DNA of 32,000 bases from Microcystis aeruginosa NIES-2549 (GCF_000981785.2 NZ_CP011304.1:2130001-2162000), one strand, 5' to 3'. Shown: positions 13,746 to 29,706, counted from the first letter of the stretch. Translations and numbers: made by a program. The notes: generated from the sequence alone by a model not told the origin.

Positions 13746-14099
<354 letters not shown>

Positions 14100-14140: not shown

Positions 14141-17100
14141 TTAAGCAATAAAATTAAACGCCAAAATCCCATCATTAAAATCGTTATCGCTGATATTGGG
14201 TAAGTTCCCCGGTAAATCCTCAAAGCCAAAGATATTATTCCCCCTTGACCGTAAATGTTCCGCCCCATCGGGATTTGCCGAGCCAAAGGAGAAATAGGCC
14301 ACCTCATGACTCATATAGTTTTCTAGGGTAGCCGCCACATTATCGGGATTCTTGGTCAAAAATGCCTGAATACTCCCTTGCAGACTTTCTCCCAGATTGC
14401 CCCCATTGGCAATCACAAAGGGTGCGTAGCGTCGCCCTCCTTCCAACAACACATCCCCTTCGTTAAATTCAGCGGCGGTGGTGCTTTGGTTTGCCCCTTC
14501 TCCACTGGCCCGCAAAATGAAGTTATTCACTGCTTGACTTAAGGCACTACGCGCATAACCCGCTTGACCGGGTTGAATTAACTCTGTCACGTTGCCATCT
14601 CCATCTAAATCGAGGCTGTCAAAAACGGCTCCGTTGTCATCCGCCACTGGATAGAGACCGACAACGTTATTGAAGAAGGCTCCCGTCTGTTGGAGTCCCT
14701 CCTCAATGGCTGTCACCTGTATGCTACTGGGCAAGTTACTGAAGTTGAAAACCAGAGAACCCTGTCCATTGCCCGTATTTTTAAATTCAAGGGCCTGGGG
14801 ATTAACGTCTTGGTCGGGTAGATTGGTAATTTCTAGGGTGAAATTAACCGTTGCGTCTGGCGTGGCATTGGGAGCCGGGTTGAGGGTGGTATCCGTTACC
14901 GCCACCGTCAGATTATAGAGGGATTGGGCTTCAAAATCAGCCTTACCGATGAAGAATAATTCCCGGCCACGAATCTGGAAACTGCTCTGATCACTGCCCA
15001 ACAAAGAAAGGCTATTGGTCCCCAAGGCATCATCGCTGATCTGAATATCGGCAACTTTGACACCTTGACTGGTATCGGTATTTTCAGCGATCGTATTGGT
15101 GCTATTAGCAAGAATTAGGGCTGTGGGAGCTTCGTTGACATCGGTGATGTTTAAAGTTAAGGTTTGGGTGAGATCGGGGGTGACACCAACGGTTGTATCA
15201 TCGACATTGACGGTGACTTCGTAACTGTTTTGAGCTTCAAAATTAGGAGTAAAACCGACATAGAAAAGAGCCGAATTCTGAATTAAGAAGCGCTCCCTAT
15301 CCCGTCCCGTGAGGAAGAGATTATTGGTTCCTAAACCATCATCTTCAATCAGGAGATCGGCGACTTTAAATTCTGGTGTGACATCGACATTTTCAGCTAA
15401 CTCGGTGACAGCATTTTGGAAAATTAGGGCTGTGGGAGCTTGATTACCGGGAGTTTCATTAACATCATTGACAGTAATTGTCAAGGTTTTCTCAAAACTT
15501 AGTCCCCCTTGATCGGTGGTTTTTACCCGAATACTGTAACTATTCTTGGTTTCAAAATCGGGGGAATTATTAATCTGTAATTGATTCCCTACAATCGAGA
15601 AGGCAGTATTATCTGTATCTCCTGTTCCTGCTATTAAACTATAGGTAAAGTTATTACCAGTATCGGGGTCTGTGCTAGAAAATGTTCCAATTACTGTGTT
15701 AACAGGGACATTTTCATTTACTGTAGTGGCACTTAATGCTAAATTTGTTGGAGCTTGATTACCGGGAGTTTCATTAACATCATTGACAGTAATTGTCAAG
15801 GTTTTCTCAAAACTTAGTCCCCCTTGGTCTGTGGTTTTTACCCGAATACTGTAACTATTTTGGGTTTCAAAATCGGGGGAATTATTAATCTGTAATTGAT
15901 TCCCTACAATCGAGAAGGCAGTATTATCTGTATCTCCTGTTCCTGCTATCAAACTATAGGTAAAGTTATTACCAGTATCGGGGTCTGTGCTAGAAAATGT
16001 TCCAATTACTGTGTTAACAGGAACATTTTCATCTACTGTAGTGGCACTTAATGCTAAATCCGTCGGAGCTTGATTACTAGGATTTTCATTAACATCATTG
16101 ACAGTAATTGTCAAGGTTTTCTCAAAACTTAGTCCCCCTTGGTCGGTGGTTTTTACCCGAATACTGTAACTATTCTTGGTTTCAAAATCGGGGGAATTAT
16201 TAATCTGTAATTGATTCCCTACAATCGAGAAGGCAGTATTATCTGTATCTCCTGTTCCTGCTATCAAACTATAGGTAAAGTTATTACCAGTATCGGGGTC
16301 TGTGCTAGAAAATGTTCCAATTACTGTGTTAACAGGAACATTTTCATCTACTGTAGTGGCACTTAATGCTAAATCCGTCGGAGCTTGATTACTAGGATTT
16401 TCATTAACATCATTGACAGTAATTGTCAAGGTTTTCTCAAAACTTAGTCCCCCTTGGTCTGTGGTTTTTACCCGAATACTGTAACTATTCTTGGTTTCAA
16501 AATCGGGGGAATTATTAATCTGTAATTGATTCCCTACAATCGAGAAGGCAGTATTATCTGTGTCTCCTGTTCCTGTAACTAAACTATAGGTAAAGGTATT
16601 GCCAGTATCGGGGTCTGTACTGGAAAATGTTCCAATTACTGTATTAACAGGAACATTTTCATTTACTGTGGTCGCACTTAATGCTAAATTTGTTGGAGCT
16701 TGATTACTAGGATTTTCATTAACATCATTGACAATAAAGTCCAGTGCCACCAGGCCATTAACCACTTCATCGCCATCGAAGAGTCCACCATCTTGGAACT
16801 GCATACGATATAAATCGTTCAAACCATTCCCGTCAACATCTTGCGCTTGGCTGATTCCGTTAACTTCTGCGGAGGGAATGTTCACATAGCTATCCGTGGC
16901 GGGATTCCAAATCAGAGGCACCACCAGACCATCTAAATCCAGATCCAAGGTGGCTATCCCCTCTGTACTATTGGTCGTGGTGATGTCAAACAGAACGGAA
17001 TTCCCCTCTGTTCCCGTAATGCTTTTCCAGCGTCGGATCTGCTCATTCCCGGTGGCGATCGCCGCTTGCCAGGCATCGGGTACTAGGTTTGGATCGCTGC

Positions 17101-20100
17101 TTTCCCCTTCTAGGGTAACCGCTAACCCAAATTTGCGAGTGCCAACGTATTCACTATTATCGGGAATGGGTACGGTAACGGTGAGGGTGGTTTCCCCGGG
17201 GGCAAATACTGCCTGGCCTGCAACAGGCGTATAGCGATCGCCAGCCTTGGCATCCCCATCCTGGGTCAAGTAACCTACCCAGACGTATTTGTCTAAATCC
17301 CCTGTGCGTTGGATGGTAAATTCTACCTTTCCATCGGCTTCATTGCCTTTAGAATTAGACACGAATAGGCGAGTCGAGGCATTAGGATTACTGGCAGTAG
17401 GACTAAATACCGAACTAGCAAAACTTCGAGCCGTGCTATCACCTGATTCATCGACACTATAGGATGTCATGGTTTCTGCACTAACAGAGGCTACTTCTAA
17501 AGTCGAGTTAGGTGTGGGGATGTTTGTTTTGGAAGCATTTGTCTTGACGGTGATAACATTAGTTGTACCTGTTTGCACAATGCGATTAAGTAAAACCGTG
17601 GCGGCGGAGGTATTGGAGGTATATTGATCGAACTTCTGATTATATTGATAGACTGTACCGTTCAGACTAAAATCGCTACTGAGATTAAGGGTGTCATCGG
17701 CATCCATTACCACCGTGACAGTGTTGTTATCAGAAAGTTGCGTGACGGTTAGAGAATTGAGGGTAAGGGTATTTGCACCATAATTTTCGGTGACTAAAAT
17801 CTCAAAATTGCGTAAACGACTACCGGGGGAAAGAGTGGTTAAATCCCAATCTTGCCCGTTATAACCCTCAAATCTTAAAACGTTTGTACCAGTACCACCA
17901 TCTAAACGAAGGAAATAGGTATCATTGACAGTAACAAAATCATCTCCGGGTCCGGCGTAAACTACGTCAATACCGCCGTTAGTATAAATTTGATCATCTC
18001 CTTCCCCGGCTAGGAAACTTTCACCCGTTGCCGTGCCAATCATGATATCATCGCCGACCGTACCAGTTTGATTTACAGTGTCATTAAAGTCACTACCAAA
18101 GATTGTGTAGGTCAGATTATCGCTATCCCCCGGCGCACCGATGATAAAGTCGCTAAAGCCATCGCCATTTACGTCCCCACCACCACTCAGGGAAATTCCG
18201 GCTTGAGAACCAGGTAAACCGGTAATTACAAAGCCGCTGGTATTCGAGTTACCCGTAGAAGCATTAGATTGATTATTACTTAAGCTGTTTAAATCAAAGG
18301 GTGACGTGGCTGGATAAGTGCTACCCCACACAGATTCCCCGCCACCAAAGACGACAAAGGCTGTACCATCGGTCGTGTTACTGCTATCCAGGGCCGTATT
18401 GGGGGAGCCAATAATTAGGTCATCGTAGCCGTCGCCGTTAATATCTCCCGTTGGTGCCACTTGGGTTAATAGCAACGCTTGATTATTAGCCACATTGGTG
18501 GAGCTATTGGGAGCCGGGGTCGCCAGCACCACATCAGGGGTGGAACTGCTACTCAAGCCGCTGGTGGAGCCGTAGAAAATTAACACTGCTCCTTGGTTAT
18601 TTTCCAGCAGGTTATTATTCCAACTGCCGAGATTCGAGAAAAAGCCAGGAGCTAGGACGGCAAAATCCGCAATACCATCGCCGTTAAAATCACCGATATT
18701 TTGCAGTTGCTCACCGAATTGTTGAGTCTGATTCGGTTCGTAAATGGGATTGGAAGTAGCGATACCAATACGCGTTGTACCCGTTGTTTCATAACCGACC
18801 AAGATACTCTCTTGGAAAAAGACGGGGGAAGGACGATCGTTGGTGGTTTGGTTTGGAATGTTATTGAGGGTACTGCTCCAGGTGCTACCCCCATCGGTAG
18901 AGGTCAAATATGGAATTTCGTTATTGCCGTTGCTGGAAGTAAAGAAAAGGTAAAGCGTATCTCCCACCGACAAAAGACTGGGACCCGATGACGATGTCTG
19001 ACCTGAAACCTGGTTACTGCTCCAGGAGGTTCCGTTGTAGGTGGCGACATTTACATCTTCATTGCCGTTACCGACAAAGCTCACCAATAAATTATCCCCA
19101 TCCACCGCCACTCCCAGGCGATTGTCAGTTTCTTGAGCATTGCCAGAGCTATTGGTGACCGTGCCATTGCTCGACCAAGTGCTTCCATCGCTAGAAGTGG
19201 TATAGAGAATCGTTTTGGTACTATTATTGGCGACAAAAAAGAGGTAAAGATCCTCGTCATAAACAGCTAGGGTAGGGCCAATGCCAGTAGGAGCGGTATT
19301 GCCGCCAGCGTTGATGGAATTAGTGCTATCAAAGGTTAAGCCTAAATCGCTACTACTGTCAGTCGTTGCTGGGGTAACAATGACCTGGTTATCTGTGGCG
19401 GTGAAAGCAAGGTAAAGTGTGTTATTAAAAACCGCTAGAGAAGCTTGGGTATCACTTTCAAAATTACTCCCTAAGCTGGTCAGCCCTTCCCAGTTATAAC
19501 CATCTGCACTTCTTTGAATATAGAAGTTAGTAGTATAAGCACCAGTGGTAGAGTTGGTAATTTCGGTAGTGTTATAGACCATATATAAATAGCCGTTAAA
19601 CACCGCAAAGGAAGGGGAAAATAGAGGAGTTTCGTCAAGACTATTGAAGCCCCAGTCACTATTATTTAATGTTCCTGAAATTGCAGCATTAGGAGGCGTG
19701 ATATTGGTGCTGTTGCTAGTAGCGGAACCAGCAGAAATATTACCTGAATAAACCGTCGCCTGTCCATTCCCAGTGGCATTAGGACTGATCACATTCCCAT
19801 TGGGTTCACCGCCGCCAATATCGCCAAAACCATCGCCATTCACATCACCGATGCCATTAAAGACGGTATTACTGTTAGCGCTAAAGGTGACAGAACTATT
19901 CAGAGTGCCGCTGCTGTTACCTGTGTAAAGTTTCTGCCCACCATTAGAGGATGACAATAACAAATCATCATAGCCATCGCCGTTGTAGTCTCCCACCGCG
20001 ACAGCAGAGGTTATGCCAGTTTGGGAAATATTGGCACTGGTACTCAAAGTCAGAGTTTGTTGGGGGCCTAGGTTGGTATTACCTAAAATCAGATAGAAAT

Positions 20101-23100
20101 TATTATTCTGATCCACCACCCCAAAATCCGCTAATCCTTCGCCGTTAAAGTCACCTGCGGCACCAACGCTTTGAATTAAGCCGCCATCGGCAATGTTAAT
20201 AATTAACTCATCCGTTCCCGCCGCTGCGTCCAGTAAATTTTGGGTACTAGCGCCAAAAGTGACAACAGCGCCATTGATACTTCCTCCGGCCAGCACATCG
20301 GCAAAACCATCGCCATTGATGTCCCCCAACATAACGACATCATTACCTGCTCCGGCAAGAATTTTGCTAACGCTAAGGGCGGTGACATATACGTCAGCCT
20401 CGGAGTTGGTGCCAGTATAGCCTAGATACAATCGACCCCCTAAAATAGCTGGAGCGGGGAGATAATTACTGGTTTGGGAATCAATCTCGTTTAACCCAGA
20501 CCAACTGGTTCCATTGCTAGAAGTCAGATAGTAGAGATCGCCACTGCTATTGCTATAGGTGAAGTAAAGTTGACTGCCGTCATTGGTAATGCCAGGCGCT
20601 GTACTGGCGCTAGTTGCGCCGCTTAGTTCCGATACGCCCCAAGTTAGGTTCGTTAAATTTGAACCGCTGGTGTTAGTGACGTAATAGTTATTACCGCTAC
20701 CTACCGTTCCACCCTGATAGGCTAGGTAAAGCGTTTCGCCCATAACGGTGGCGCTGACGGCTTGGCTGGCAGTTTGATTGGGGGTACCATCTGGATTGGC
20801 AACTGTGTAATCTGTTGACCAGGAAGCTCCTGATTGGGGATTATTAGAGTAAACGTAAAGAATATCGCTATTAGACTCGGTGCTGACAAAAAACGCCATC
20901 AACTGGTCTTGATAAACCACGAGAGAAACCCCGGCACTGGAAGATTGATTGGGGATAGCTTGTGCGCTTGTCCAGGTTTGTCCGTTATCAGTGCTAGAGG
21001 TAATATAGAGGTCTTTATTAAGACCAACAAAAGCCAGATAAAGCGTCCCTTGATAAAAAGCTAAGGATGGGGACTGGCTGGTAGTTATACCACTGGGAAG
21101 TTCCACCGCGCTTGTCCAGGTTTGCCCGGCATCACTGCTAGTGGTCAGATAAATTTGATTACCCCCCTTTTCCACATAGGCGAGGTAAAAAGTGCCGTTA
21201 TTGTTGATGAAAGCAGGGGCGGCGCTCGATTCGTCTCCGAGGTTATAAATTTGGGTTCCTATTCCTACTGTTACGGAGTATAAGTCGCCATCAATAACAA
21301 AACCGTTATCACCGGAAATATCGGCTAATTTAATACTGCCATCGTCCGCTAACCAGGGATGGCCATAAGTAGTGTAGAGTTGTCCCGCATTAGGCGCACT
21401 AATCATTAAATCATCCACGCCATCACCGTTCACATCCCCAATACCACTAGCGGCGGCTCCCACTAATTGATAAGGCTGATCTCCATTGAGTAAGAAGGTG
21501 GTTTTACTATCAGTAGCGGTAATGTTGAGGTCAAAAATAGTACCAATGTCGCTCAGATTAAGGGGTCCAAAAAGCACATAACCTTGCCCAGTGCCGTTTG
21601 CACCCTGGGGGGCGGTAATCAAAAAGTCTGCATACCCATCATCGTTGACATCGCCGGGGGAGGTAATAATCGCCCCTGTTTGACTGAAAGAAAGCCCTCC
21701 GACAATACCTAAATTGGCTACATTGCCAAGATTTTGAGCATTACTGTTGGCACTTACTCCTCCTTTAAGAACATAAACGGCACCGTTATTATTGCTTGCT
21801 CCCGGGGCGGAAATGGCTAAATCATTAGTACCATCACCATCTAAGTCACTACTATTTAAGGCACTTCCCGCATTGATGTTATTAGCTGTACCATTACTGG
21901 AGGGCAGATTGGGACCGGTATAACTCACATATTCCGTTAATGTTGTTGTGCCATTACTTTGATAGACATAGACTGCCCCCAATTCGGCTTGGGTGGTGGA
22001 GGGATAACTATTATTTTGATTGGTATTACCAGGAAGTCCACTTATGCCATTCCATTGATTAGTAACCGTTCCTTGAAAGTTGATCGCACCGATAATCAAA
22101 TCATCGGAAAGTTTATTACCAGTAAAGGTAGTGGAATTAGGTGTACGAGAGGAAACCGCAAGGCTATAACCTGCTAACTCTCCCTGGTTAGTGGAATTGT
22201 AAATATTTGAAGAACTTGAACTACCATCAAAGGCAACATACACCGCCCCATTGCCATTATTTGCCCCCGGCGCACCGATGGCAATATCAAATTTAGTACC
22301 ATTGGCGTAAGTGCCATTAGATTGAGCGTTACTGTTAAAGTTACCCACTGCCACGGAATAACCAAAGGCGATATTGGTTGAACTGGGGGCATTAATTACA
22401 TAACCTTGACTGCTAGTTAAATTCGTGACATCAATGGTAGATCCTTCTAAATTATTAGAGCCATAAATGACATATACTGCATTCGCATTGGGATCACCAA
22501 TGACTAAATCCTGATAACCATCACCATTGACATCTCCTGTGGCCATACTGAAAGGAAAATCGCCGTTTGCTTGTCCAGTATCACTTAAACCTGTAATCAA
22601 GACACCGTTAGGATTGCCAGTTAAATCGGTAGTAGTTAAGGGATTGGTTTCACTGTTTAATAATACTGCGCCGCCTCCAAAGAGAATTTGGATTGTCCCT
22701 CCTGATTGTGGAACGCCTGAGGTGTTAGTATAGCCCCGATTTCCCACGGCTACATCGGATTTACCATCGTTGTTAAAGTCAGCAGAAACGATTGAATAAC
22801 CGATACTAGGATTATTGGTGTTGATAATAAAACCACTATCGATTAAAGCAAGGGAAGAATCATTGGCTTCGGTGACTGTGGCGGTTCCTAATACTTGGTT
22901 AGAGTTGATGGTTGTGGGTTCGCTGGTGACATCTACAGGATTGATAGATTGGGAAGCATTACCATTGATAGAATATTCAAAGTTAGAGTAATTATTACCT
23001 CCTCCATCGATAAATAAATCTAAGTCCACATTAGAGGACAAGATTGTATATTCCCAACTACCATCAGGATTCACAGGATTAAGTAGTTTATCCCCTTGCA

Positions 23101-26100
23101 CAACCGCTAATTGATTGCCATTGGTATTGCCCACACTCCATGTGATAGTCTCGCCATTACTATTAGTCGCAGTGACAACAATAGAACTTATTGTTGTACC
23201 TGTAGCCTGATTCGATAAATTGAGGGGTAAATAAATATCAGGATTACCGTTAGGATTCACATAGCCACTACTGTTAGCAGTGGTGTAAGAAGTCACATCC
23301 CATTCAGGTGTATTAGCATTGGATAGTTGAGTGGCGATGGGCTTGTAGGTAGGATCAATAACACTAGGCACACTCCAGGAACTACCATTATAAGTTACAT
23401 AGTTGGTATTTGGTCCGGCAGGTAAAGGATCGATATATTGAGAATTATATTTATTGCCTATTTGACTGGTACTAAATAGGATTTGAGAAATTTGAGAAGG
23501 GGTTAAATTGCCAAAATCCGATATATCACCAGTTTCGCTATAGGTTAAGGCTTGACTATAAAAAGCCACCTCATCTAAATAGACGGCACTGGTATTAGAA
23601 GCACTAGCAAGACTGACAGTGGCACTGTTCGGGAGAGTTAAGGCTAAATTCTCTTGAGAGACCGAGGGTTTACCATTAATATAAAGGGTAGCAGTATCGG
23701 TTTCTCCGTCATAACTGGCAACCACATAATACCATTGGTTAGCACTAGGAGTAAAACCATCGGAGTTTAAGATATTTCCATTGAGATTGAAAGATAACTC
23801 TGTATTGGTGAGACTTATACTCACCAGGTCACTAACTGATAGTAATTCTATCGAACTTGAGGATAAAGAGGGTGCATTAAACCAAAATTCTAAGCTAAAA
23901 GAAATACCAGAGAAGGGAATGGCGACGGAAGTGGCACTATCGCCTGCATTAAACAATACGGCAGGATTGGGATCACCCTGATTAGTGCTAGTATTTTCTA
24001 ACGCACCTACCTCATTAAATGTTACTGAACCACTATAAGTACCATTACCGCCAGCCCCGTAAATACCTTCATTGACAAGGGTTGTACCACTGGTTTCCGC
24101 TAGACGATAGTAAAGTAGAGGAGATTCTTCTTGGGTTAATTGACTATAGGATGTAGCCTGAGTTTCTGTCCACAAAACTGTTGGCTTACCGTTAATGGTG
24201 ACAATACTTAACTCTGTTGAGGGATCAGGATTTGCGTCAGTGTAGAGAATTTCAGGACTACTCCAACTAGCCACCCCACTACTATAAGTAAGGCTTGACC
24301 AGTAAATGTTTGATTCGCTATTATTATAGTTAATCCATGCGGCCATCAATTCGTTATTCGGTCCAGAGCCGATGACGATTTTGCCTTCCGAGCCTTCTTG
24401 TTCTGCTATGGCAGCGGCTATCGTCCAACTACCTCCACTATAGATAGAGTAATAAATGTCAGATTTATTGAAACTTTCATTAATTGAGGTAGTTTCATCG
24501 TCGGTATAAAATTCGCCAGGTACAAGGTTCGTATTTATATCACTAGCATCAGCATTAGACCAGACTAACACGGTAATATCATTAGTGGAGTCATAGGCCC
24601 CTACGGGATTAAAGTTAAAACCGCCTGTCCCCGGAATACTGCTAATACTGCTAACTAGGTTAGTATCAGTAGAATTGAGGACAGCGTATTTAATAACAGT
24701 AGTTGGAGTGCTAGGGGATGTAATAACGGGTTGATTGCTAAAATTAGCCACACTACCGTTAGTACCAGATAAAGAATTACCCGTATAACTTACTGTAACG
24801 ATGTCTCCATTACCGATGAGATTTACCCCGTCTGGGGGTTGAACCGTTAAAATAACTGTATTGCCAGTAGTATTTACGTTCCCAGATATCGTAAATACCT
24901 GTCCATTACTTTCTACAGTAAAGTCGCTATTGGTAACACCATTATCGGTTAAAGTTTGATCGAAAACGAGGGTAATTTGATTACTGGTATTATTTTCGGT
25001 ATTATTTTCAACGATCGCACCCGCCCCCAATATAACGGGGGGATTGCTACTCTTAGTGGTGTTAGTCAGGGCAAAATTACTAAATTCATTAACCCAAAGG
25101 GTGGTATTAGTAAAGGAGTTATCAATGTAAAGATTAGTGCTGGTGGGAGTTGAAAGATTGTAACTAATGCTTAATTCTGTATCCTCACTCACCGCAGTAT
25201 CAAGAGTTAAAGTCAGACTATTATCATTAACTTGGATATTGCCCACAGTATAGCTATTATTATTACTATCGGTGACGATAAATTGATTAGCAGTAGGAAC
25301 ATCATTGCCATTGCCTAGATCATCGATAAAATTCAGGGTGACAAGTTTCCCGTTAACAAAACCGGAGATCGGTTCTAGAGGCGGAACCTCCGCAACCCAT
25401 GCCAATAAAGGAGATGAACCACCAGAAATAATGAAGGGCGCACTATCTTGTCCTAAATCCGCTTCAATATTTGCCATGAGGGAGGAAGTTGTAACAGCAG
25501 GCGGGGTAATCCCTGTTACTAAGGAGCTAATATTTTGACTGTTGTAAGTTATACTAACAATTTGATCGGGAGATACACTCTGATTGAGACTCAAAAAGAC
25601 ATTATTCCCTGTGAGGGAAACAGAAACACTCTGTACCTGGACATCATTCACCGTTGTCCCATCAGAGTTGGTAACGGTGACGGTATAATCTGCAACAGTG
25701 TCGGAGAATGTCAGATTAGAATTGTTGTTTGAAATGAAGACAGATGACTGAGAGACTTGGGCAGATACGCCATTTTGAATGGTAAAAGATTCGATCGAAT
25801 CTCCGTTACTATCTTCTAAGGGGTTACTACCTAAAGAACTACTATTGTTATAACTAATGGTGACATTTTGTAGAGACTGATTCGTCACCGATGAGGCAAA
25901 TGTTAATAACACACCATTATTAGTTACCGTCGCATCGGTAATGGATAAGGAGGTGTTATTGTTGTTGGTGACGGTAAATCGAGCAAGATCAGGACTAACC
26001 GTCGTATCTAAGGGAGTGTTAAAAGCGAGAAGGAGGGTGAGATTAATATAGTTTTGACTGTTACCACTGGTGGGATTGTATTGATAAGCAAGGGAGTTAG

Positions 26101-28228
26101 GAGTATTATTAGTAACGCCTAAATCAGAGATATTTTCGATCGTATTGCCATTAGTATCCGTGATCCCCTCATTATTTACAAAATTGAGAGAGACATTATT
26201 GCTAGTGGGTGTAGGATTATCAGAACTGGTGTAATCGAGATTTTCTGAGGTAGGAATGGCATTTTCTAACTGTAAAATAACGAGATTAGAACTCGCACCT
26301 GCTACCACACCAAAAACAGGAACATTAGTAATATTGCCATTAATATCCGTCACGCTGACAGTAAAGTCACTCGCGGAGGGAAGTGCAGCTAAATCTGTGC
26401 CGAAGTCCACTGTAATCAAAGAACCAGCTAAACTGGCGCTAGTGGTAGAAGCCATTAACGCCAAAGAAGTCGAACTTGCTACTGAGGAGGAGTCACTGTC
26501 ACTACTAGAGTTTTTATTGCCGTCAAAAACATTCCAAGACCAACCCGGATTGAAATTAAAACCTAATCCTAAAGGACCTATCTTCACCTCTAAACCAACG
26601 GGAAAAGTTAGGGAGATAGTATTATCTGTATTTCCAATACCCCAGTTAAAAGCAGTTTCGACACCACCGTTTATATCTGCACTCAGAATTGGTACATGGG
26701 GAATTTGAGCCTTACCGGATACCCCTGTAGTCAACACAGGAAAACTAATCGAGCCTTGGTTATCTAATCCTTGGGTCGTGCCATTAATAAAAGCGGCGAA
26801 GGTTTCCCCTACAGCAATCGCTATATTGGCGGCCAGAATTCCAGCACCGCTACCCTCAGTTGTTCCCTCTGTCGCTAGATTCATCATTAGTACAGATGCG
26901 TCGGCACCAGCACCTGAACCTATCGCTTTGCCCAAATCACCTAGTCCTGCCAACAAAGTTTGAGGCGAATAGGTTTGTCCAGAAATAGGTGTCCCCAAAA
27001 GGTTAAAATTAATACCGACACTACCCGTGGCATCTAAGGTAAAAAATCCTGCGGTTTCCTCTGCTGGTATAATCGGAAACTTTACGGAAGCGGTTATGCC
27101 TAAAACGTTATCTATATCAAGCAAATCATAGGGTGAATTGTTAGAAAAGCTATACTTAGAATCTAGGTCAAATCCAAAAGTAATAGGACTTTCTCCCCGT
27201 ATTTTTTTTGTTCCGACTACATTAGCACTATCATCAGCGAATAAATTACCAAATAAATCACTATTTTGATAATCAACGGTGGGATCAGGTACGGTTTTAT
27301 TTTTCCAAGGGCTTTTTAACTCTTTGGGGGATTCCCATTCTAGCTGTGCATTTGTTTGTAAAAAAATTGATGGTTCTCCACCAAAAGTTGTCCCCCCTGA
27401 CAATGTACCCACAAGCTCCCAATTTTTCATAAAGGGAGTGATAATTGATCGAAGAAAGCCACTGCTAGGCACACTGTGCATCAATTCCCAATCTTCTAAT
27501 AAACTACTAGCAAAGTATAATTGGGCATTCCATGAGCCGAAAGGTTGTTGTGCTTGTTCTTCTTCTGTTTCGTCGCTACTAATACTTAAACTATTGGCTT
27601 CTGTGGCTGATTGTACCGCTGGAGTTGTGCTTTGAGCATTGCTTAAAACCCCCGGATTAACGACACCATTATTCGTTAATTGAGGGGAATAGGGGGCAGT
27701 AGGTATTACATTACTGGTACTTGTAGAGAATTGACTACTGCTAACGCTAAAGGTTTGAGTGTAAAAGTCGGTATCTTCTTTGATGCTGAGATTCGCAACA
27801 TTATCAAAGTTAACCTTTGAACCGATAACTATTACTTCGCCGCTATCATTAACTGTAACGGTAGGTTCTAAATCCCCTACTTGATCTGAGGTTAGAGTTT
27901 GAGGAGTATCTAACCATTGTAAATCAGCATTCTCGTCGTATTGGGCGGCGGTATAGAAAAAATCGCTATCATTCAGATTTCCCTGTTGCCATACCACTGC
28001 TAACCCCGGATTGCTCCCACTAATCAGTTTATCACTAGCGACGAGATTAAGACTGGCGACAGGTTCAGTACCCGTAAAAGCAATAGCTTCGGCATTTTTC
28101 CAAGTTTCCGAATTACTGTCATAGACTGCGTGCCAAATATTGCCATTATCAGCCCAAACGATATGAGTAACCCCTGTGGTGGAGTCAGTGGTGACAGCGG
28201 AAAGACTGGAAGCGAGATTGATAGACAT
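14141..28228 (-). CDS. Giant (4,695 aa) multidomain Ca-binding adhesin/lectin-like surface protein
   Basis: A single uninterrupted 14,088-nt ORF. Recognisable repeats and domains run along the whole length (see the sub-features), which an accidental ORF could not produce. I found no Cys on reading the translation. The protein is acidic and rich in S/T/N/G. There is no N-terminal signal peptide. Confidence 0.9.
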   Translation of the reverse strand: MSINLASSLSAVTTDSTTGVTHIVWADNGNIWHAVYDSNSETWKNAEAIAFTGTEPVASLNLVASDKLISGSNPGLAVVWQQGNLNDSDFFYTAAQYDENADLQWLDTPQTLTSDQVGDLEPTVTVNDSGEVIVIGSKVNFDNVANLSIKEDTDFYTQTFSVSSSQFSTSTSNVIPTAPYSPQLTNNGVVNPGVLSNAQSTTPAVQSATEANSLSISSDETEEEQAQQPFGSWNAQLYFASSLLEDWELMHSVPSSGFLRSIITPFMKNWELVGTLSGGTTFGGEPSIFLQTNAQLEWESPKELKSPWKNKTVPDPTVDYQNSDLFGNLFADDSANVVGTKKIRGESPITFGFDLDSKYSFSNNSPYDLLDIDNVLGITASVKFPIIPAEETAGFFTLDATGSVGINFNLLGTPISGQTYSPQTLLAGLGDLGKAIGSGAGADASVLMMNLATEGTTEGSGAGILAANIAIAVGETFAAFINGTTQGLDNQGSISFPVLTTGVSGKAQIPHVPILSADINGGVETAFNWGIGNTDNTISLTFPVGLEVKIGPLGLGFNFNPGWSWNVFDGNKNSSSDSDSSSVASSTSLALMASTTSASLAGSLITVDFGTDLAALPSASDFTVSVTDINGNITNVPVFGVVAGASSNLVILQLENAIPTSENLDYTSSDNPTPTSNNVSLNFVNNEGITDTNGNTIENISDLGVTNNTPNSLAYQYNPTSGNSQNYINLTLLLAFNTPLDTTVSPDLARFTVTNNNNTSLSITDATVTNNGVLLTFASSVTNQSLQNVTISYNNSSSLGSNPLEDSNGDSIESFTIQNGVSAQVSQSSVFISNNNSNLTFSDTVADYTVTVTNSDGTTVNDVQVQSVSVSLTGNNVFLSLNQSVSPDQIVSITYNSQNISSLVTGITPPAVTTSSLMANIEADLGQDSAPFIISGGSSPLLAWVAEVPPLEPISGFVNGKLVTLNFIDDLGNGNDVPTANQFIVTDSNNNSYTVGNIQVNDNSLTLTLDTAVSEDTELSISYNLSTPTSTNLYIDNSFTNTTLWVNEFSNFALTNTTKSSNPPVILGAGAIVENNTENNTSNQITLVFDQTLTDNGVTNSDFTVESNGQVFTISGNVNTTGNTVILTVQPPDGVNLIGNGDIVTVSYTGNSLSGTNGSVANFSNQPVITSPSTPTTVIKYAVLNSTDTNLVSSISSIPGTGGFNFNPVGAYDSTNDITVLVWSNADASDINTNLVPGEFYTDDETTSINESFNKSDIYYSIYSGGSWTIAAAIAEQEGSEGKIVIGSGPNNELMAAWINYNNSESNIYWSSLTYSSGVASWSSPEILYTDANPDPSTELSIVTINGKPTVLWTETQATSYSQLTQEESPLLYYRLAETSGTTLVNEGIYGAGGNGTYSGSVTFNEVGALENTSTNQGDPNPAVLFNAGDSATSVAIPFSGISFSLEFWFNAPSLSSSSIELLSVSDLVSISLTNTELSFNLNGNILNSDGFTPSANQWYYVVASYDGETDTATLYINGKPSVSQENLALTLPNSATVSLASASNTSAVYLDEVAFYSQALTYSETGDISDFGNLTPSQISQILFSTSQIGNKYNSQYIDPLPAGPNTNYVTYNGSSWSVPSVIDPTYKPIATQLSNANTPEWDVTSYTTANSSGYVNPNGNPDIYLPLNLSNQATGTTISSIVVTATNSNGETITWSVGNTNGNQLAVVQGDKLLNPVNPDGSWEYTILSSNVDLDLFIDGGGNNYSNFEYSINGNASQSINPVDVTSEPTTINSNQVLGTATVTEANDSSLALIDSGFIINTNNPSIGYSIVSADFNNDGKSDVAVGNRGYTNTSGVPQSGGTIQILFGGGAVLLNSETNPLTTTDLTGNPNGVLITGLSDTGQANGDFPFSMATGDVNGDGYQDLVIGDPNANAVYVIYGSNNLEGSTIDVTNLTSSQGYVINAPSSTNIAFGYSVAVGNFNSNAQSNGTYANGTKFDIAIGAPGANNGNGAVYVAFDGSSSSSNIYNSTNQGELAGYSLAVSSRTPNSTTFTGNKLSDDLIIGAINFQGTVTNQWNGISGLPGNTNQNNSYPSTTQAELGAVYVYQSNGTTTLTEYVSYTGPNLPSSNGTANNINAGSALNSSDLDGDGTNDLAISAPGASNNNGAVYVLKGGVSANSNAQNLGNVANLGIVGGLSFSQTGAIITSPGDVNDDGYADFLITAPQGANGTGQGYVLFGPLNLSDIGTIFDLNITATDSKTTFLLNGDQPYQLVGAAASGIGDVNGDGVDDLMISAPNAGQLYTTYGHPWLADDGSIKLADISGDNGFVIDGDLYSVTVGIGTQIYNLGDESSAAPAFINNNGTFYLAYVEKGGNQIYLTTSSDAGQTWTSAVELPSGITTSQSPSLAFYQGTLYLAFVGLNKDLYITSSTDNGQTWTSAQAIPNQSSSAGVSLVVYQDQLMAFFVSTESNSDILYVYSNNPQSGASWSTDYTVANPDGTPNQTASQAVSATVMGETLYLAYQGGTVGSGNNYYVTNTSGSNLTNLTWGVSELSGATSASTAPGITNDGSQLYFTYSNSSGDLYYLTSSNGTSWSGLNEIDSQTSNYLPAPAILGGRLYLGYTGTNSEADVYVTALSVSKILAGAGNDVVMLGDINGDGFADVLAGGSINGAVVTFGASTQNLLDAAAGTDELIINIADGGLIQSVGAAGDFNGEGLADFGVVDQNNNFYLILGNTNLGPQQTLTLSTSANISQTGITSAVAVGDYNGDGYDDLLLSSSNGGQKLYTGNSSGTLNSSVTFSANSNTVFNGIGDVNGDGFGDIGGGEPNGNVISPNATGNGQATVYSGNISAGSATSNSTNITPPNAAISGTLNNSDWGFNSLDETPLFSPSFAVFNGYLYMVYNTTEITNSTTGAYTTNFYIQRSADGYNWEGLTSLGSNFESDTQASLAVFNNTLYLAFTATDNQVIVTPATTDSSSDLGLTFDSTNSINAGGNTAPTGIGPTLAVYDEDLYLFFVANNSTKTILYTTSSDGSTWSSNGTVTNSSGNAQETDNRLGVAVDGDNLLVSFVGNGNEDVNVATYNGTSWSSNQVSGQTSSSGPSLLSVGDTLYLFFTSSNGNNEIPYLTSTDGGSTWSSTLNNIPNQTTNDRPSPVFFQESILVGYETTGTTRIGIATSNPIYEPNQTQQFGEQLQNIGDFNGDGIADFAVLAPGFFSNLGSWNNNLLENNQGAVLIFYGSTSGLSSSSTPDVVLATPAPNSSTNVANNQALLLTQVAPTGDINGDGYDDLIIGSPNTALDSSNTTDGTAFVVFGGGESVWGSTYPATSPFDLNSLSNNQSNASTGNSNTSGFVITGLPGSQAGISLSGGGDVNGDGFSDFIIGAPGDSDNLTYTIFGSDFNDTVNQTGTVGDDIMIGTATGESFLAGEGDDQIYTNGGIDVVYAGPGDDFVTVNDTYFLRLDGGTGTNVLRFEGYNGQDWDLTTLSPGSRLRNFEILVTENYGANTLTLNSLTVTQLSDNNTVTVVMDADDTLNLSSDFSLNGTVYQYNQKFDQYTSNTSAATVLLNRIVQTGTTNVITVKTNASKTNIPTPNSTLEVASVSAETMTSYSVDESGDSTARSFASSVFSPTASNPNASTRLFVSNSKGNEADGKVEFTIQRTGDLDKYVWVGYLTQDGDAKAGDRYTPVAGQAVFAPGETTLTVTVPIPDNSEYVGTRKFGLAVTLEGESSDPNLVPDAWQAAIATGNEQIRRWKSITGTEGNSVLFDITTTNSTEGIATLDLDLDGLVVPLIWNPATDSYVNIPSAEVNGISQAQDVDGNGLNDLYRMQFQDGGLFDGDEVVNGLVALDFIVNDVNENPSNQAPTNLALSATTVNENVPVNTVIGTFSSTDPDTGNTFTYSLVTGTGDTDNTAFSIVGNQLQINNSPDFETKNSYSIRVKTTDQGGLSFEKTLTITVNDVNENPSNQAPTDLALSATTVDENVPVNTVIGTFSSTDPDTGNNFTYSLIAGTGDTDNTAFSIVGNQLQINNSPDFETKNSYSIRVKTTDQGGLSFEKTLTITVNDVNENPSNQAPTDLALSATTVDENVPVNTVIGTFSSTDPDTGNNFTYSLIAGTGDTDNTAFSIVGNQLQINNSPDFETQNSYSIRVKTTDQGGLSFEKTLTITVNDVNETPGNQAPTNLALSATTVNENVPVNTVIGTFSSTDPDTGNNFTYSLIAGTGDTDNTAFSIVGNQLQINNSPDFETKNSYSIRVKTTDQGGLSFEKTLTITVNDVNETPGNQAPTALIFQNAVTELAENVDVTPEFKVADLLIEDDGLGTNNLFLTGRDRERFLIQNSALFYVGFTPNFEAQNSYEVTVNVDDTTVGVTPDLTQTLTLNITDVNEAPTALILANSTNTIAENTDTSQGVKVADIQISDDALGTNSLSLLGSDQSSFQIRGRELFFIGKADFEAQSLYNLTVAVTDTTLNPAPNATPDATVNFTLEITNLPDQDVNPQALEFKNTGNGQGSLVFNFSNLPSSIQVTAIEEGLQQTGAFFNNVVGLYPVADDNGAVFDSLDLDGDGNVTELIQPGQAGYARSALSQAVNNFILRASGEGANQSTTAAEFNEGDVLLEGGRRYAPFVIANGGNLGESLQGSIQAFLTKNPDNVAATLENYMSHEVAYFSFGSANPDGAEHLRSRGNNIFGFEDLPGNLPNISDNDFNDGILAFNFIA
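14144..14435 (-). other. C-terminal DUF4114-like domain of the giant protein
   Basis: The ending ...YAPFVIANGG...VAYFSFGSANPDGAEHLRSRGNNIFGFEDLPGNLPNISDNDFNDGILAFNFIA carries the FGFED...GDxDFND signature I associate with DUF4114. Confidence 0.6.
14815..15434 (-). other. Two diverged cadherin-like modules (copies 5 and 6)
   Basis: These are about 105-aa modules ending in ...LNITDVNEAP and ...LEITNLPD. Each has AENxD near the start, a DDxxGTN loop and an F(E/x)AQxxY...V.V.D core. They have the same length and frame as the four upstream copies but are much more divergent. Confidence 0.65.
15435..16694 (-). repeat. Four head-to-tail, in-frame 315-bp repeats encoding near-identical cadherin-like modules
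   Basis: On the plus strand the units start at 15435, 15750, 16065 and 16380, each with GGAGCTTGATTAC. The period is exactly 315 nt, or 105 codons. My manual alignment gives about 6 of 315 differences between the middle copies and about 17 of 315 between the copies starting at 16065 and 16380. The protein unit is NQAPT(N/D)LALSATTV(N/D)ENVPVNTVIGTFSSTDPDTGN(T/N)FTYSL...FSIVGNQLQINNSPDFETKNSYSIRVKTTDQGGLSFEKTLTITVNDVNE. Confidence 0.95.
17105..17365 (-). other. Calx-beta domain
   Basis: GKVEFTIQRTGDLDKYVWVGYLTQDGDAKAGDRYTPVAGQAVFAPGETTLTVTVPIPDNSEYVGTRKFGLAVTL fits the Calx-beta pattern (V.R.G......V.Y.T.DG.A.AG.DY....G.L.F..GE....I.V.I.DD...E..E.F). Confidence 0.7.
17925..18065 (-). other. 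RTX-like (hemolysin-type Ca-binding) nonapeptide block, about 3 repeats
   Basis: GTVGDDIMIGTATGESFLAGEGDDQIYTNGGIDVVYAGPGDDFVTV contains GxxGxD-type turns. The block lies about 1,300 aa from the C-terminus. Confidence 0.55.
18095..18720 (-). other. FG-GAP/integrin-alpha-type blades, block 3 (3 blades)
   Basis: The Ca-loop motifs are GDFNGDGIADFAVLAPG, GDINGDGYDDLIIGSP and GDVNGDGFSDFIIGAPG. Confidence 0.7.
18750..19625 (-). other. Asp-box (BNR)-containing beta-propeller-like module 2, about 6 blades
   Basis: Blades of about 47 aa recur with a hydrophobic strand (YLYMVY, TLYLAF, DLYLFF, NLLVSF, TLYLFF, SILVGY). Asp-box-like turns follow: RSADGYNW, TSSDGSTWSS, YNGTSWSS and STDGGSTWSS. Confidence 0.55.
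19795..20365 (-). other. FG-GAP-type blades, block 2 (4 blades)
   Basis: The motifs are GDINGDGFADVLAGG, GDFNGEGLADFGVVD, GDYNGDGYDDLLLSS and GDVNGDGFGDIGGGEP. Confidence 0.7.
20385..21225 (-). other. Asp-box (BNR)-containing beta-propeller-like module 1, about 6 blades
   Basis: The blades read TFYLAYVEKGGNQIYLTTSSDAGQTWTS, TLYLAFVGLNKDLYITSSTDNGQTWTS, QLMAFFVS...YVYSNNPQSGASWST, TLYLAYQGG..., QLYFTYSNSSGDLYYLTSSNGTSWSG and RLYLGYTG.... Two blades carry a perfect SxDxGxTW Asp-box. Confidence 0.6.
21365..22805 (-). other. FG-GAP-type blades, block 1 (7 blades, a complete integrin-alpha-like propeller)
   Basis: The blades are ADFNNDGKSDVAVGN, GDVNGDGYQDLVIGDP, GNFNS...KFDIAIGAP (degenerate), ...KLSDDLIIGA (degenerate), SDLDGDGTNDLAISAPG, GDVNDDGYADFLITAP and GDVNGDGVDDLMISAP. 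Confidence 0.7.
23545..24125 (-). other. LamG / concanavalin-A-like lectin domain
   Basis: LLYYRLAETSGTTLVNEG...FSLEFWFNAPSL...ANQWYYVVASYDGETDTATLYINGKPS...VYLDEVAFYSQALT shows the typical LamG_3 pattern: an FWF strand, W.hVa.tYDG....LYvDG, and iDEVriY..aLs. Confidence 0.65.
24720..26475 (-). other. About 5-6 Ig-like beta-sandwich repeats of the kind seen in giant cyanobacterial surface proteins such as SwmB
   Basis: An approximately 95-aa pattern recurs: ..L.L.F...L......DFTV....G....V..V.V.GN.V.LTL...V.....V.VSY. Examples are NQITLVFDQTLTDNGVTNSDFTVESNGQVFTISGNVNTTGNTVILTVQPP...IVTVSYTGNSL and GKLVTLNFIDDL...ANQFIVTDSNNNSYTVGNIQVNDNSLTLTLDTAV...LSISYN. The family assignment is tentative. 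Confidence 0.45.
26525..28228 (-). other. Unassigned N-terminal module (about 568 aa) ending before a poly-Ser linker
   Basis: I recognise no family. The module contains the only long hydrophobic stretch in the protein (GSGAGILAANIAIAVGETFAAFI, about nt 26780-26850). It ends ...ISLTFPVGLEVKIGPLGLGFNFNPGWSWNVF, directly followed by the linker DGNKNSSSDSDSSSVASS (about nt 26478-26524). Confidence 0.5.
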
Positions 28229-28512: not shown

Positions 28513-29706
28513 ATGACCTTGAGCTTCCTCAAGGTGCTAGGATCACAAACTCCTCTACTACAGCTTAATCCAGAATCTAAAATCCCAATGCAGTTCAATC
28601 CCCTCACCTCTGAAATCATCATCGAATTTCTCCAAAAAAAGCTCTATTTAAGTGAATATCGTACCTTAAGTCTTCAAGAAGAAATGATTATTAAAGGAAT
28701 CATTGATCAGCATAGTTATGAAAAAATTGCCAATCAAATTTATCTTAGTCCAGGTACCACCCGCAATATTGCCTCTCAGCTTTTCCGTCACTTATCAACA
28801 TTGTTTAAAACTAAAATAACCAAGAAAAATTTTGGCGTATTTATCGAGAAAACGATGAACAACAAGGAAGATTTCATCGATGAACTAGAAAATTATACGC
28901 CAAACTGTTTAGAGGCAAATTTATCTGTTATTTTATTAATCGACGATCAACTGGAAAACCTGTTGCTTCTCAAGCAAATTCTCTCTCAAAATAATTACAT
29001 AGTTCGTACCATTAAGAATGGTCGGACAGCCCTAGAGCTAATTGATAAAATTAATCCCAACTTAATTCTTTTAGATATTTTAATGCCTGAGATAGATGGC
29101 TATGGAGTTTGTAAAACACTAAAAGAAAATCCACAATATAAGGAAATTCCTATTATCTTTCTCAGTGCTATTAGTGATTTAACTGACAAAGTAAAAGCCT
29201 TTAGTTTGGGGGCTAGTGATTATATTACCAAACCTTTTGAGCCGGTTGAAGTTTTAGCGAGAGTCTCCTATCAAATTGAACTTCAATCTCAACGCCGAGC
29301 CTTGAAGACAGAAATTGAATCTCATCAAAAAACTATCGAATCCTTGACCCAATCTCGATCAATTTTAGCTAGTCTTCTCAATTATGCTCCCTATGGAATT
29401 GCCGCTTTATCCGCTATTCGTAGTCCAGAAACTGGAGAAGTTATTGATTTTGAGTTTATTCTCGTTAATCCAATTTTTATCAAACTTTTTCCCGCTGACT
29501 CTGAGCTAATTAAAAGTGGTTCAAGTTGTGTCTCATTTTTGCAAAAAAAACAACTGGATTGGCTGCCAAAATTAATTAACCTAGTAACAGCTGGCCAACC
29601 CTTCTCCGAGATTATCAATCTCGCCAGCCAAATTATTGAAGTTCATGGAACTAAATTAGGCGATGGTGTTAGTATAACCTTACATCCTATAGTTAATCAT
29701 TTTTAA
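28513..29706 (+). CDS. Atypical response regulator: N-terminal LuxR-type HTH, then receiver (REC), then coiled coil, then a PAS-like C-terminal domain
   Basis: HTH: LSLQEEMIIKGIIDQHSYEKIANQIYLSPGTTRNIASQLFRHL (LuxR/GerE pattern). REC: ILLIDDQ, the phospho-acceptor in LILLDILMPEIDG, FLSA and KPF are all present. The C-terminal 100 aa (LLNYAPYGIAALSAIRSPETGEVIDFEFILVNP...) look PAS-like. The start codon is uncertain (28513 or 28588). Confidence 0.8.
   Translation: MTLSFLKVLGSQTPLLQLNPESKIPMQFNPLTSEIIIEFLQKKLYLSEYRTLSLQEEMIIKGIIDQHSYEKIANQIYLSPGTTRNIASQLFRHLSTLFKTKITKKNFGVFIEKTMNNKEDFIDELENYTPNCLEANLSVILLIDDQLENLLLLKQILSQNNYIVRTIKNGRTALELIDKINPNLILLDILMPEIDGYGVCKTLKENPQYKEIPIIFLSAISDLTDKVKAFSLGASDYITKPFEPVEVLARVSYQIELQSQRRALKTEIESHQKTIESLTQSRSILASLLNYAPYGIAALSAIRSPETGEVIDFEFILVNPIFIKLFPADSELIKSGSSCVSFLQKKQLDWLPKLINLVTAGQPFSEIINLASQIIEVHGTKLGDGVSITLHPIVNHF

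Follow-up and report, generated by a model that had tools for sequence, protein, structure and literature searches.

What does a 14.1-kb open reading frame (ORF) encode in a bloom-forming cyanobacterium, and what might its product do? The question is raised by a chromosomal locus of Microcystis aeruginosa NIES-2549, which we analyzed within a stretch of 32,000 nucleotides (NZ_CP011304.1:2130001-2162000; here called the window, with coordinates counted from its first letter). An earlier note, made from the sequence alone, had described the ORF product as a Cys-free mosaic of lectin-type and Ca-dependent adhesion modules. We found that the ORF is an intact gene, kept by purifying selection. Its product, called the giant protein below, reads as the Microcystis member of an undescribed cyanobacteria-restricted family with one core architecture. 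We put at about one-half the probability that it is a polysaccharide-binding adhesin or lectin of the cell surface, stiffened by Ca and exported without Sec, probably by type I secretion, a function that we infer from its modules.

Authenticity and composition of the ORF

The ORF starts with ATG and runs for 4,695 codons plus a stop (window 14141..28228, minus strand). As the earlier note had stated, it is a single uninterrupted frame that fills 44% of the window, where it is the longest ORF. The product is identical in sequence to AKE64507.1/WP_046662059.1 of M. aeruginosa NIES-2549, records that carry the names "alkaline phosphatase" and "cadherin domain-containing protein." The giant protein and its homologs appear in databases as "hypothetical," "SwmB domain-containing," "cadherin domain-containing," and, spuriously, "alkaline phosphatase"; we found no phosphatase domain in the giant protein by Pfam or NCBIfam.

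A frameshift or chimeric assembly had been named as a concern. We found that an independent assembly (GCA_009811875, locus L002) has the same structure, a collinear allele of 4,698 aa with 98% identity and a matching genomic context. The ratio of nonsynonymous to synonymous substitution rates (dN/dS) between these two long alleles is 0.23 (Nei-Gojobori). Collinearity with relatives of other genera extends over >3,000 aa. Taken together, the independent allele, the collinear relatives, and the dN/dS indicate that the ORF is not an assembly artifact.

We also confirmed the unusual composition: the giant protein has 0 Cys and 7 His, S+T+N+G make up 43%, and K+R make up 2.2%. Its predicted mass is 491 kDa and its predicted pI is 4.05, with 470 acidic versus 102 basic residues. 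At the Cys frequency of the 13 other ORFs in the window (0.76%), about 36 Cys residues would be expected, and the probability of finding none is ~2.5e-16. Similarly, the ORF holds 0 TGY codons versus ~99 predicted from its own position-specific base composition. This shows that selection on composition continues. Across 19 family proteins, some of them partial, we counted 7 Cys in 63,542 residues. Judged by sequence, the giant protein is Cys-free, acidic, and Ca-binding in character; its predicted Ca sites are 12 FG-GAP DxDxDGxxD loops, the RTX turns, Calx-beta, and the cadherin linkers.

Modules of the giant protein

The modules are listed from the N to the C terminus, with confidence of AlphaFold2 (AF2) models given as the predicted local distance difference test (pLDDT) and immunoglobulin abbreviated as Ig.

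27734..28228 (-), aa 1-165: N1, all-beta, like ~3 beta-propeller blades (AF2 pLDDT 70-88)
27542..27733 (-), aa 166-229: disordered S/T/Q/E-rich linker, poorly conserved (pLDDT <45)
26525..27541 (-), aa 230-568: N2, novel domain without a Pfam, NCBIfam, or PDB match
26429..26524 (-), aa 569-600: Ser/Thr/Ala-rich linker, of a kind present in every family member
24713..26428 (-), aa 601-1172: five SWM/TIGR02059 "cyanobacterial long protein" Ig-like repeats (PF13753, TIGR02059)
24089..24691 (-), aa 1180-1380: blade-like region without Asp-boxes, weakly similar to N1
23459..24076 (-), roughly aa 1385-1590: LamG/concanavalin-like jelly roll (Pfam match at aa 1433-1565)
22859..23431 (-), aa 1600-1790: conserved beta-rich module without a family match (44-48% mean family identity)
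21329..22846 (-), aa 1795-2300: FG-GAP (integrin-alpha-type) propeller 1, seven blades (PF01839, E 1e-55)
20369..21241 (-), aa 2330-2620: Asp-box (BNR_2) propeller-like module 1 (PF13088, 48.9 bits versus cutoff 31.4)
19724..20365 (-), aa 2622-2835: FG-GAP propeller 2, blades 1-4 (Ca loops at aa 2636, 2693, 2747, and 2795)
18749..19651 (-), aa 2860-3160: Asp-box module 2, between FG-GAP blades 4 and 5, a paralog of module 1
18074..18736 (-), aa 3165-3385: FG-GAP propeller 2, blades 5-7 (Ca loops at aa 3180, 3262, and 3352)
17549..18061 (-): five RTX-like nonapeptide turns (aa 3390-3436) and a conserved post-RTX block to ~aa 3560
17069..17371 (-), aa 3620-3720: Calx-beta (PF03160, E 6.7e-21, 75 bits versus cutoff 27)
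16694..17056 (-), aa 3725-3845: conserved module with a faint "choice-of-anchor U" likeness (NF041766, E 0.039)
14816..16702 (-), aa 3843-4470: six extracellular cadherin (EC) repeats (PF00028, E 3e-30, 104.9 bits versus cutoff 28.8)
14144..14791 (-), aa 4480-4695: C-terminal DUF4114-containing domain (PF13448, E 7e-10; DUF4114 at aa 4620-4692)

Profile searches recovered the SWM/Ig repeats, LamG, the 7+4+3 FG-GAP blades, two Asp-box propellers, Calx-beta, six cadherins, and DUF4114, all of which the earlier note had named. Cadherin (PF00028), BNR (PF13088, together with SxDxGxTW boxes), Calx-beta (PF03160), LamG (PF13385), and TIGR02059 all score above their family cutoffs. The SWM repeats match PF13753 in 5 stretches (E 2.9e-28) and TIGR02059 at 51.6 bits (cutoff 40.1). 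The LamG match is PF13385 Laminin_G_3 (E 3.7e-14, 53.6 bits versus cutoff 27.6), with PF02210 under its cutoff. The FG-GAP Ca loops are grouped 7, 4, 3 along the protein, with 12 canonical DxDxDGxxD loops altogether, five of them in propeller 1 (aa 1817, 1899, 2128, 2193, and 2265). The two Asp-box modules share 31% identity (E 6e-26) and carry SxDxGxTW boxes at aa 2364 and 2412 (module 1) and at aa 3012 and 3110 (module 2); the BNR_2 match spans only part of the model. The Calx-beta region matches the NCX1 Ca-binding domain (CBD) structures (E 4.5e-9), and the module at aa 3725-3845 has one DxDGxGxxD loop (aa 3797), with NF041766 passing its cutoff in one relative, P0172. The cadherin repeats start at aa 3843, 3948, 4053, 4158, 4263, and 4366. 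Their block matches protocadherin structures (E 2.6e-19), and the inter-repeat Ca motifs VNENVP, DPDTGN, DFE, and NDVNENP are legible in the sequence.

Two further parts of the earlier description came through less clearly. The RTX-like turns have weak RTX-toxin and serralysin/ZapA C-terminal matches, but HemolysinCabind, at 22.0 bits, misses its cutoff of 23. The "propeller-like region without Asp-boxes" (aa 1180-1380) has a weak similarity to the N1 blades (E 0.015) but no family match in Pfam or NCBIfam. These databases also gave no family match for aa 1-600, 1600-1790, or 3437-3560, and the N-terminal module of ~568 aa, left unassigned before, is still without a Pfam, NCBIfam, or PDB assignment.

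A cyanobacterial family that shuffles modules

We searched a profile of the N-terminal 575 aa exhaustively, as a hidden Markov model (HMM), against 1.84 billion representative proteins. This gave 103 protein matches, with ~20 near-full-length giants of 2.5-4.3 kaa (thousand amino acids) that carry the whole module at the extreme N terminus. Word-indexed searches with the N-module, as a single sequence or a 22-sequence profile, gave only 4-5 proteins; the family was seen by the exhaustive HMM search. In a scan of genomes with a single N-module pattern, 15/15 loci were cyanobacterial. Their hosts are Geminocystis, Synechocystis salina, Chroococcopsis gigantea, Cyanobacteria bacterium RI_101, and uncultured lineages, and some genomes hold 2-3 family copies. 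Geminocystis sp. CENA526 and Cyanobacteria bacterium RI_101 have two copies each, and one contig of Synechocystis salina LEGE 00031 (L014/L015) has two family genes in tandem, ~13 kb apart.

Relatives are collinear with the giant protein from aa 1 to ~3840 at 35-53% identity, and the DUF4114 end also aligns where it is present. In a 14-sequence alignment, the RTX and post-RTX block is the most conserved part (73% mean identity over aa 3401-3500), and aa 1-100 (55% mean identity) and some portions of the FG-GAP propellers are also well conserved. The internal RTX turns and the next ~120 aa (aa 3390-3560), the most constrained stretch of the family, bear a weak likeness to the C-terminal regions of proteases and toxins that leave the cell by type I secretion. 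The unique mosaic that the earlier note implied did not hold: the first ~3,840 aa and the DUF4114 end are the conserved core of a cyanobacterial family, and only the cadherin block is specific to Microcystis.

The cadherin block has an occupancy of 0.12-0.39 in the same alignment and is missing from all relatives examined. EC1-4 form a tandem array of 315 bp x 4.2 with 96% DNA identity (window 15430-16737). The array at aa 3843-4470 is thus a Microcystis-specific insertion, and the 96% identity among the 315-bp repeats points to recent amplification of its first four copies.

The Asp-box modules also differ among relatives. In P0166, 42 aa stand in place of giant aa 2801-3174, so that Asp-box module 2 is absent and FG-GAP blades 4 and 5 adjoin. 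Because P0166 lacks the insert, we prefer to regard the "4 + 3" blades as a single seven-bladed unit into which an Asp-box domain has been inserted. The seven blades with DxDxDGxxD loops that define an integrin-alpha-type FG-GAP propeller would then be present as 7 and again as 4+3, the latter contiguous in P0166. Asp-box module 1 is facultative, with an occupancy of 0.3-0.4 in the 14-sequence alignment; P0156 lacks it, and P0173 has a 43%-identical copy elsewhere, within the LamG region.

The C termini differ as well. DUF4114 is found in P0160 by Pfam, and the ends of P0161, P0165, P0166, P0168, and P0171 are closely similar by alignment. P0159, P0170, and P0172 end in RTX plus TIGR03661 T1SS_VCA0849, a C-terminal target domain of the type I secretion system (T1SS), at 24.8-28.1 bits versus a cutoff of 17.6. 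P0156 ends in an RTX-type C terminus, and P0164 ends with DUF5648 repeats. Modules have been gained, relocated, and exchanged as the family evolved, as seen in the Asp-box propellers inserted into other domains, the cadherin array, and the choice among three C termini.

The DUF4114 terminus

The earlier note had assigned carbohydrate binding to LamG and the propellers. The LamG and Asp-box matches are real, but we found a better lectin candidate, at the level of a motif, in the DUF4114 terminus with its LecB-like Ca/sugar loop. Seven residues are invariant in 8 family DUF4114 termini (E4670, D4671, G4674, D4681, D4683, N4685, and D4686, giant numbering). When the profile was aligned to LecB (PA-IIL) with hhalign, these loop residues paired with E95, D96, G97, D99, D101, N103, and D104, over 23 columns at a probability of 37% and an E-value of 3.5e-4 for a single comparison. 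The LecB sequence that we used was checked against PDB entries. In LecB, E95, D99, D101, N103, and D104 coordinate two sugar-binding calcium ions. The authors of a study of Myxococcus xanthus PilY1.1 likened DUF4114 to the PA-IIL, RS-IIL, and BclA lectins, and a D-to-A change in the DUF4114 Ca site of that protein abolishes exopolysaccharide-dependent twitching (PMC9109919).

The N-terminal module

With 5 sequences, AF2 folded only aa 1-165 of aa 1-575, with a pLDDT of ~25 beyond. With 22 sequences, the mean pLDDT was 67, and the model had three parts: N1, a disordered stretch (aa 170-228), and N2. N2 was modeled as ten long beta-strands of 13-22 aa with three helices at aa 423-482. This helical region is Gly-rich in its hydrophobic segment and, in most of the 22 members, holds the 19-residue window of highest hydrophobicity (Kyte-Doolittle 1.6-2.1). 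In every member, N2 is followed by 30-50 aa of S/T/A-rich linker. The module starts with a conserved M-[ST]-I-[ND]-L-[AS] motif, which is not signal-peptide-like and has no hydrophobic stretch in a hydropathy scan.

Foldseek of the N-module against the PDB gave nothing at E <= 1e-3. N1 matched sialidase 4x4a (probability 1.0 over 168 columns) and the RSL lectin (probability 0.96), both with poor E-values. N2 faintly matched porins, ushers, a perforin pore, and BinAB, all at a probability of <0.1 and E >0.01. None of the 22 N-modules matched a Pfam family, LapA-type domains included, and the N-module profile found nothing among PDB sequences.

N1 (aa 1-165) was also found deep within unrelated giants of 3-6 kaa with N-terminal signal-like sequences (among P0184, P0186, P0192, and P0209). 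In P0192, N1 is N-terminal and is followed directly by a blade region that matches giant aa 1170-1400, without SWM repeats. There are hints that N1 and the later blade region may belong together as a split propeller.

Export and the proposed mechanism

A hydropathy scan showed no Sec signal at the N terminus of the giant protein. The non-hydrophobic N terminus, the acidic pI of 4.05, the RTX-like turns, and the T1SS target domains of relatives lead us to suggest that the protein is probably exported Sec-independently, by the type I route. An ABC-2 transporter near one related locus (L008) was considered as a secretion gene and rejected because it is not of the T1SS type.

We propose that the giant protein would leave the cell in an unfolded state, with a TolC-dependent type I system as the most likely route, and would fold outside as Ca2+ fills its sites. 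The N-module, with blade-like N1, the hydrophobic helical hairpin of N2, and the 30- to 50-aa S/T/A linker, may remain at the envelope, where it would anchor the protein or act as a plug. Beyond it, the Ig-like repeats, propellers, and cadherins could form a Ca-stiffened stalk; RTX adhesins reach their ligands through Ca-rigidified tandem repeats, according to PMC7493085 and PMC5550230. At the distal end, the cadherin array and the DUF4114 tip, with its putative LecB-like two-calcium sugar site, would hold polysaccharide of the mucilage or of neighboring cells and so give Ca-dependent cohesion. Expression would probably be under the control of the adjacent dCache kinase and response regulator. 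An extracellular Ca-dependent adhesin, as the earlier note had proposed, is still the most economical reading.

The adjacent two-component pair and natural alleles

Two genes lie upstream of the giant gene:

28513..29706 (+): response regulator of 397 aa, HTH_VMAP-M9 plus receiver, divergent from the giant gene
29703..32000 (-): dCache-HAMP-HisKA-HATPase sensor kinase, which leaves the window at its end (892 aa in L002)

We considered whether the kinase is interrupted in the window and rejected this, as its ORF merely runs past the window end. The pair also adjoins family members in Cyanobacteria bacterium RI_101 (57% identity for the regulator and 51% for the kinase) and in Geminocystis (44% for the regulator). 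Because this adjacency is conserved in three genera and because the pair decays together with the giant gene, the response regulator is the probable regulator of the giant gene, and the dCache kinase is the probable sensor of the module.

This decay is seen in natural alleles. The 90%-identity cluster of the giant protein has many members of 1,435-1,442 aa, which are truncated alleles. We found the truncated allele in one Microcystis metagenome-assembled genome (L001) and in four independent Joint Genome Institute metagenome contigs (L018-L021). Its match to the window ends at position 23938, in codon ~1431, where LamG begins. Past this breakpoint, a 212-bp piece of the next codons is inverted (window 23729-23940), and unrelated genes follow. 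The four metagenome contigs have also lost ~900 bp of the regulator gene (window 28521-29419), and in 2/4 the kinase is split into ORFs of 327 and 528 aa. The dN/dS of the truncated allele versus the window is 0.66, from small counts. We concluded that, in some members of the natural Microcystis population, the three genes of the kinase-regulator-giant module decay together, and this co-decay argues for a functional link among them.

Other traces of change surround the locus. The contigs with the short allele have an extra copy, ~245 bp long, of giant codons ~170-270 upstream of the kinase (L001 1098-1343; L018 1547-1792; the same in L019-L021). It is 92-100% identical, has an internal deletion, and is absent from the long-allele L002, a further sign of rearrangement at the locus. 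An N-terminal remnant of a gene for a pyridoxal phosphate (PLP) enzyme of Cys/Met metabolism (window 13753-14091, plus strand; ORF 13827-14099) abuts the stop codon of the giant gene. In the short-allele contigs, a complete PLP enzyme gene and an alpha/beta-hydrolase gene stand at the place of the remnant, and in L002 an IS605 OrfB/Y1 transposase pair follows it.

Downstream of the giant gene are genes for Band7, DUF202, TerC, DUF1003, and pentapeptide proteins, NadA, and photolyase and Wzc-, Wzx-, and FkbM-type polysaccharide genes. The last lie in window 1-5812, ~8-14 kb downstream, as an FkbM methyltransferase, a Wzx-type flippase, and a Wzc-like chain-length/tyrosine-kinase protein, with a Uma2-family endonuclease among them. 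A tie between this polysaccharide cluster and the putative glycan ligand of the giant protein is conceivable. Upstream, a 121-aa ORF (28257-28622, minus strand) is probably not a gene; it is rich in Cys, matches no family, and overlaps the start of the regulator.

Points against the adhesin reading and alternative explanations

Several results weigh against the adhesin reading. On the side of export, we found no secretion genes (ABC transporter, membrane-fusion protein, or TolC-like channel) within the 32-kb window, and such genes were absent among 10 ORFs sampled upstream of five related loci; unlinked genes may supply this function. The last 256 aa, in which no T1SS target domain was detected, gave no NCBIfam match and only DUF4114 in Pfam, and the RTX block lies ~1,250 aa from the C terminus rather than forming a terminal RTX-plus-signal. 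On the side of binding, the similarity to LecB is limited to the 23 columns and 37% probability given above. PDB searches by HMM or phmmer, with the DUF4114 profile or the 48-aa terminus, retrieved nothing, LecB included, and the likeness is therefore evidence at the motif level only. That N2 serves as an envelope anchor is a guess, its fold having no significant structural neighbor. On the side of function, a scan of Microcystis species-representative genomes with the single N-module pattern gave no match, so that the gene is accessory within Microcystis, and the frequency of truncated alleles shows that the module is dispensable to Microcystis at large. Literature searches found no transcript, peptide, or phenotype data for the giant protein and no characterization of it or of FG-GAP, cadherin, or Calx-beta adhesins of Microcystis. 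Consistently with the earlier note, no characterized protein with this architecture turned up in our homolog and literature searches.

Of the alternatives, the one that survives best, although we consider it unlikely, is a surface coat or motility-type outer layer of the SwmB kind, which, with no specific ligand to bind, would act on surface properties, buoyancy, or drag or on how well the cells withstand grazers and phages. The giant protein shares the SWM/TIGR02059 repeat, named after SwmB; one of its database names is "SwmB domain-containing protein"; and strain-variable presence, absence, and truncation are typical of surface antigens under phage or grazer pressure. The Synechocystis FG-GAP/Calx-beta protein Slr1403 has been reported at the cell surface, where it varies with the S-layer protein (PMC5333879). 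However, only 5 SWM repeats, ~12% of the protein, are held in common with SwmB-type proteins, and its cadherin, Calx-beta, FG-GAP, and LecB-like modules are of kinds that bind ligands or Ca, not of kinds that build lattices. Swimming is also not known from Microcystis.

An improbable alternative is a secreted enzyme for polysaccharide processing or nutrient scavenging, in which the Asp-box modules would be catalytic five- or six-bladed propellers (sialidase- or GH43-like) and the rest binding or spacer modules. BNR_2 passes its cutoff, aa 2336-2512 match Glyco_hydro_43 weakly (E 3.7e-4), NCBIfam gives a faint match to a glycosylhydrolase family, LamG and DUF4114 could serve as carbohydrate-binding modules, and the GenBank name is "alkaline phosphatase." The GH43 score, however, is 20.4 bits versus a cutoff of 32.2, BNR_2 covers its model only partly, and neither Pfam nor NCBIfam finds a phosphatase domain. 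Asp-box module 1 is also facultative (occupancy 0.3-0.4; absent from P0156, relocated in P0173) and so cannot be the core activity of the family.

Still less probable is a contact-dependent or secreted membrane-active effector, with N2 inserting into the membrane of a competitor or grazer and the rest of the protein targeting it. N2 does hold the most hydrophobic segment of the family (19-residue Kyte-Doolittle maximum of 1.6-2.1) between long hairpins, RTX proteins include pore-forming toxins, and Foldseek gave the faint likenesses to porins, ushers, a perforin pore, and BinAB. Those structural matches are all at a probability of <0.1 and E >0.01, however, and no immunity-like small gene adjoins the giant ORF. 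Furthermore, known type I substrates exit C terminus first, which would leave the N-terminal module last and nearest the producer.

That the ORF is a nonfunctional relic or assembly chimera with a meaningless architecture can be dismissed as very improbable: natural populations often carry truncated alleles with rearrangement scars and the near-identical 315-bp repeats could mislead assemblers, but 14,085 nt are free of stops, the independent assembly agrees, and the dN/dS of 0.23, the collinearity with other genera, and the 0 versus ~99 TGY codons all speak for a maintained gene.

We therefore return to the Ca-stiffened adhesin or lectin as the preferred reading. An extension of it is speculative, and we regard it as quite unlikely in its joint form. 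In this extension, the ~570-aa N-module would be an unrecognized cyanobacterial envelope anchor for Sec-independent giants, made of a partial propeller and a beta-rich domain, the latter shielding a helical hairpin that is hydrophobic and rich in glycine. At the same time, the kinase-regulator-giant module would be a strain-variable, signal-controlled, Ca-dependent lectin system whose presence or decay helps decide colony cohesion in mucilage.

Implications for Microcystis colonies

In Microcystis, buoyancy, resistance to grazing, and the formation of blooms all depend on colony formation, and the proteins that keep the cells in mucilage are poorly known. As a candidate for Ca-dependent cohesion, the giant gene is open to genetic and biochemical tests: its product has many Ca sites and a predicted Ca/sugar tip, and the gene has a sensor-regulator pair of its own. 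A role as a colony aggregation factor is pure inference at this stage, and many natural Microcystis carry the truncated allele. These natural loss-of-function alleles would allow correlation with phenotype in strains and blooms. Independently of any role in cohesion, the analysis defines a family of cyanobacterial giant proteins with an undescribed N-terminal domain. Bacterial genomes commonly encode uncharacterized surface giants, and if the giant protein turns out to be just another of these, the result is an ordinary one.

Comparison with known systems

Among known systems, the RTX giant adhesins (such as LapA, MpIBP, FrhA, and SiiE) come closest to the giant protein in logic. As far as these are described in the papers cited above, the giant protein resembles them in being very large, acidic, Cys-poor, and without a Sec signal and in having Ca-stiffened tandem Ig-like extenders. 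It also has a distinct N-module followed by a flexible linker, its putative ligand modules are near the C-terminal end, and relatives end in RTX plus a T1SS target domain. In contrast to RTX adhesins, its RTX block is internal and weak and its C terminus is DUF4114 rather than RTX plus a secretion signal. Its 570-aa N-module of novel fold has no Pfam match to LapA-type retention modules, of which it may yet be a functional analog, no T1SS or LapG/LapD-type genes adjoin the giant gene, and the body consists mainly of FG-GAP and Asp-box propellers rather than dozens of identical bacterial Ig-like (BIg) repeats. An RTX C terminus is found in the relatives P0159, P0170, and P0172 (TIGR03661) and P0156 (RTX), not in the giant protein. 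Membership among the RTX adhesins thus fails on the C-terminal RTX-plus-signal, the linked T1SS genes, and the homology of the N-module.

Like the inverse autotransporters intimin and invasin, the giant protein has an N-terminal beta-rich module, a linker, Ig-like repeats, and a distal lectin-like tip. We rejected an inverse autotransporter reading of N2, since there is no Sec signal, no barrel-family match in 22 N-modules, and no significant structural match. With PA-IIL/LecB and the DUF4114 of PilY1.1, the giant protein shares a C-terminal loop of the form E-D-x(n)-D-x-D-[YF]-N-D, after which a hydrophobic strand lies near the C terminus. The PilY1.1 study (PMC9109919) implicates DUF4114 in binding exopolysaccharide in a Ca-dependent way. 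Unlike LecB, it has a 7-residue insertion in this loop, and the upstream ~150 aa do not align.

SwmB of marine Synechococcus is a 1.12-MDa protein required for swimming motility, according to a reference cited in PMC2853384. The giant protein is like SwmB in its SWM_repeat/TIGR02059 repeat, its giant size, and its predicted cell-surface location and unlike it in that just five repeats are common to the two. To our knowledge, the N-module, LamG, FG-GAP, Asp-box, Calx-beta, cadherin, and DUF4114 are not known from SwmB. Slr1403 and Slr0408 of Synechocystis PCC 6803 have been described as "integrin alpha/beta4-domain homologues" (May & Ponting 1999, as cited in PMC5333879 and PMC3192720). Like the giant protein, they are cyanobacterial giants that join FG-GAP blades and Calx-beta, and Slr1403 was reported at the cell surface (PMC5333879); neither has a demonstrated function. 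The single-pattern N-module scan gave no PCC 6803 locus, and Synechocystis salina has family members. Slr1403, Slr0408, and SwmB, none of which has a demonstrated mechanism, are the closest cyanobacterial proteins to the giant protein in content.

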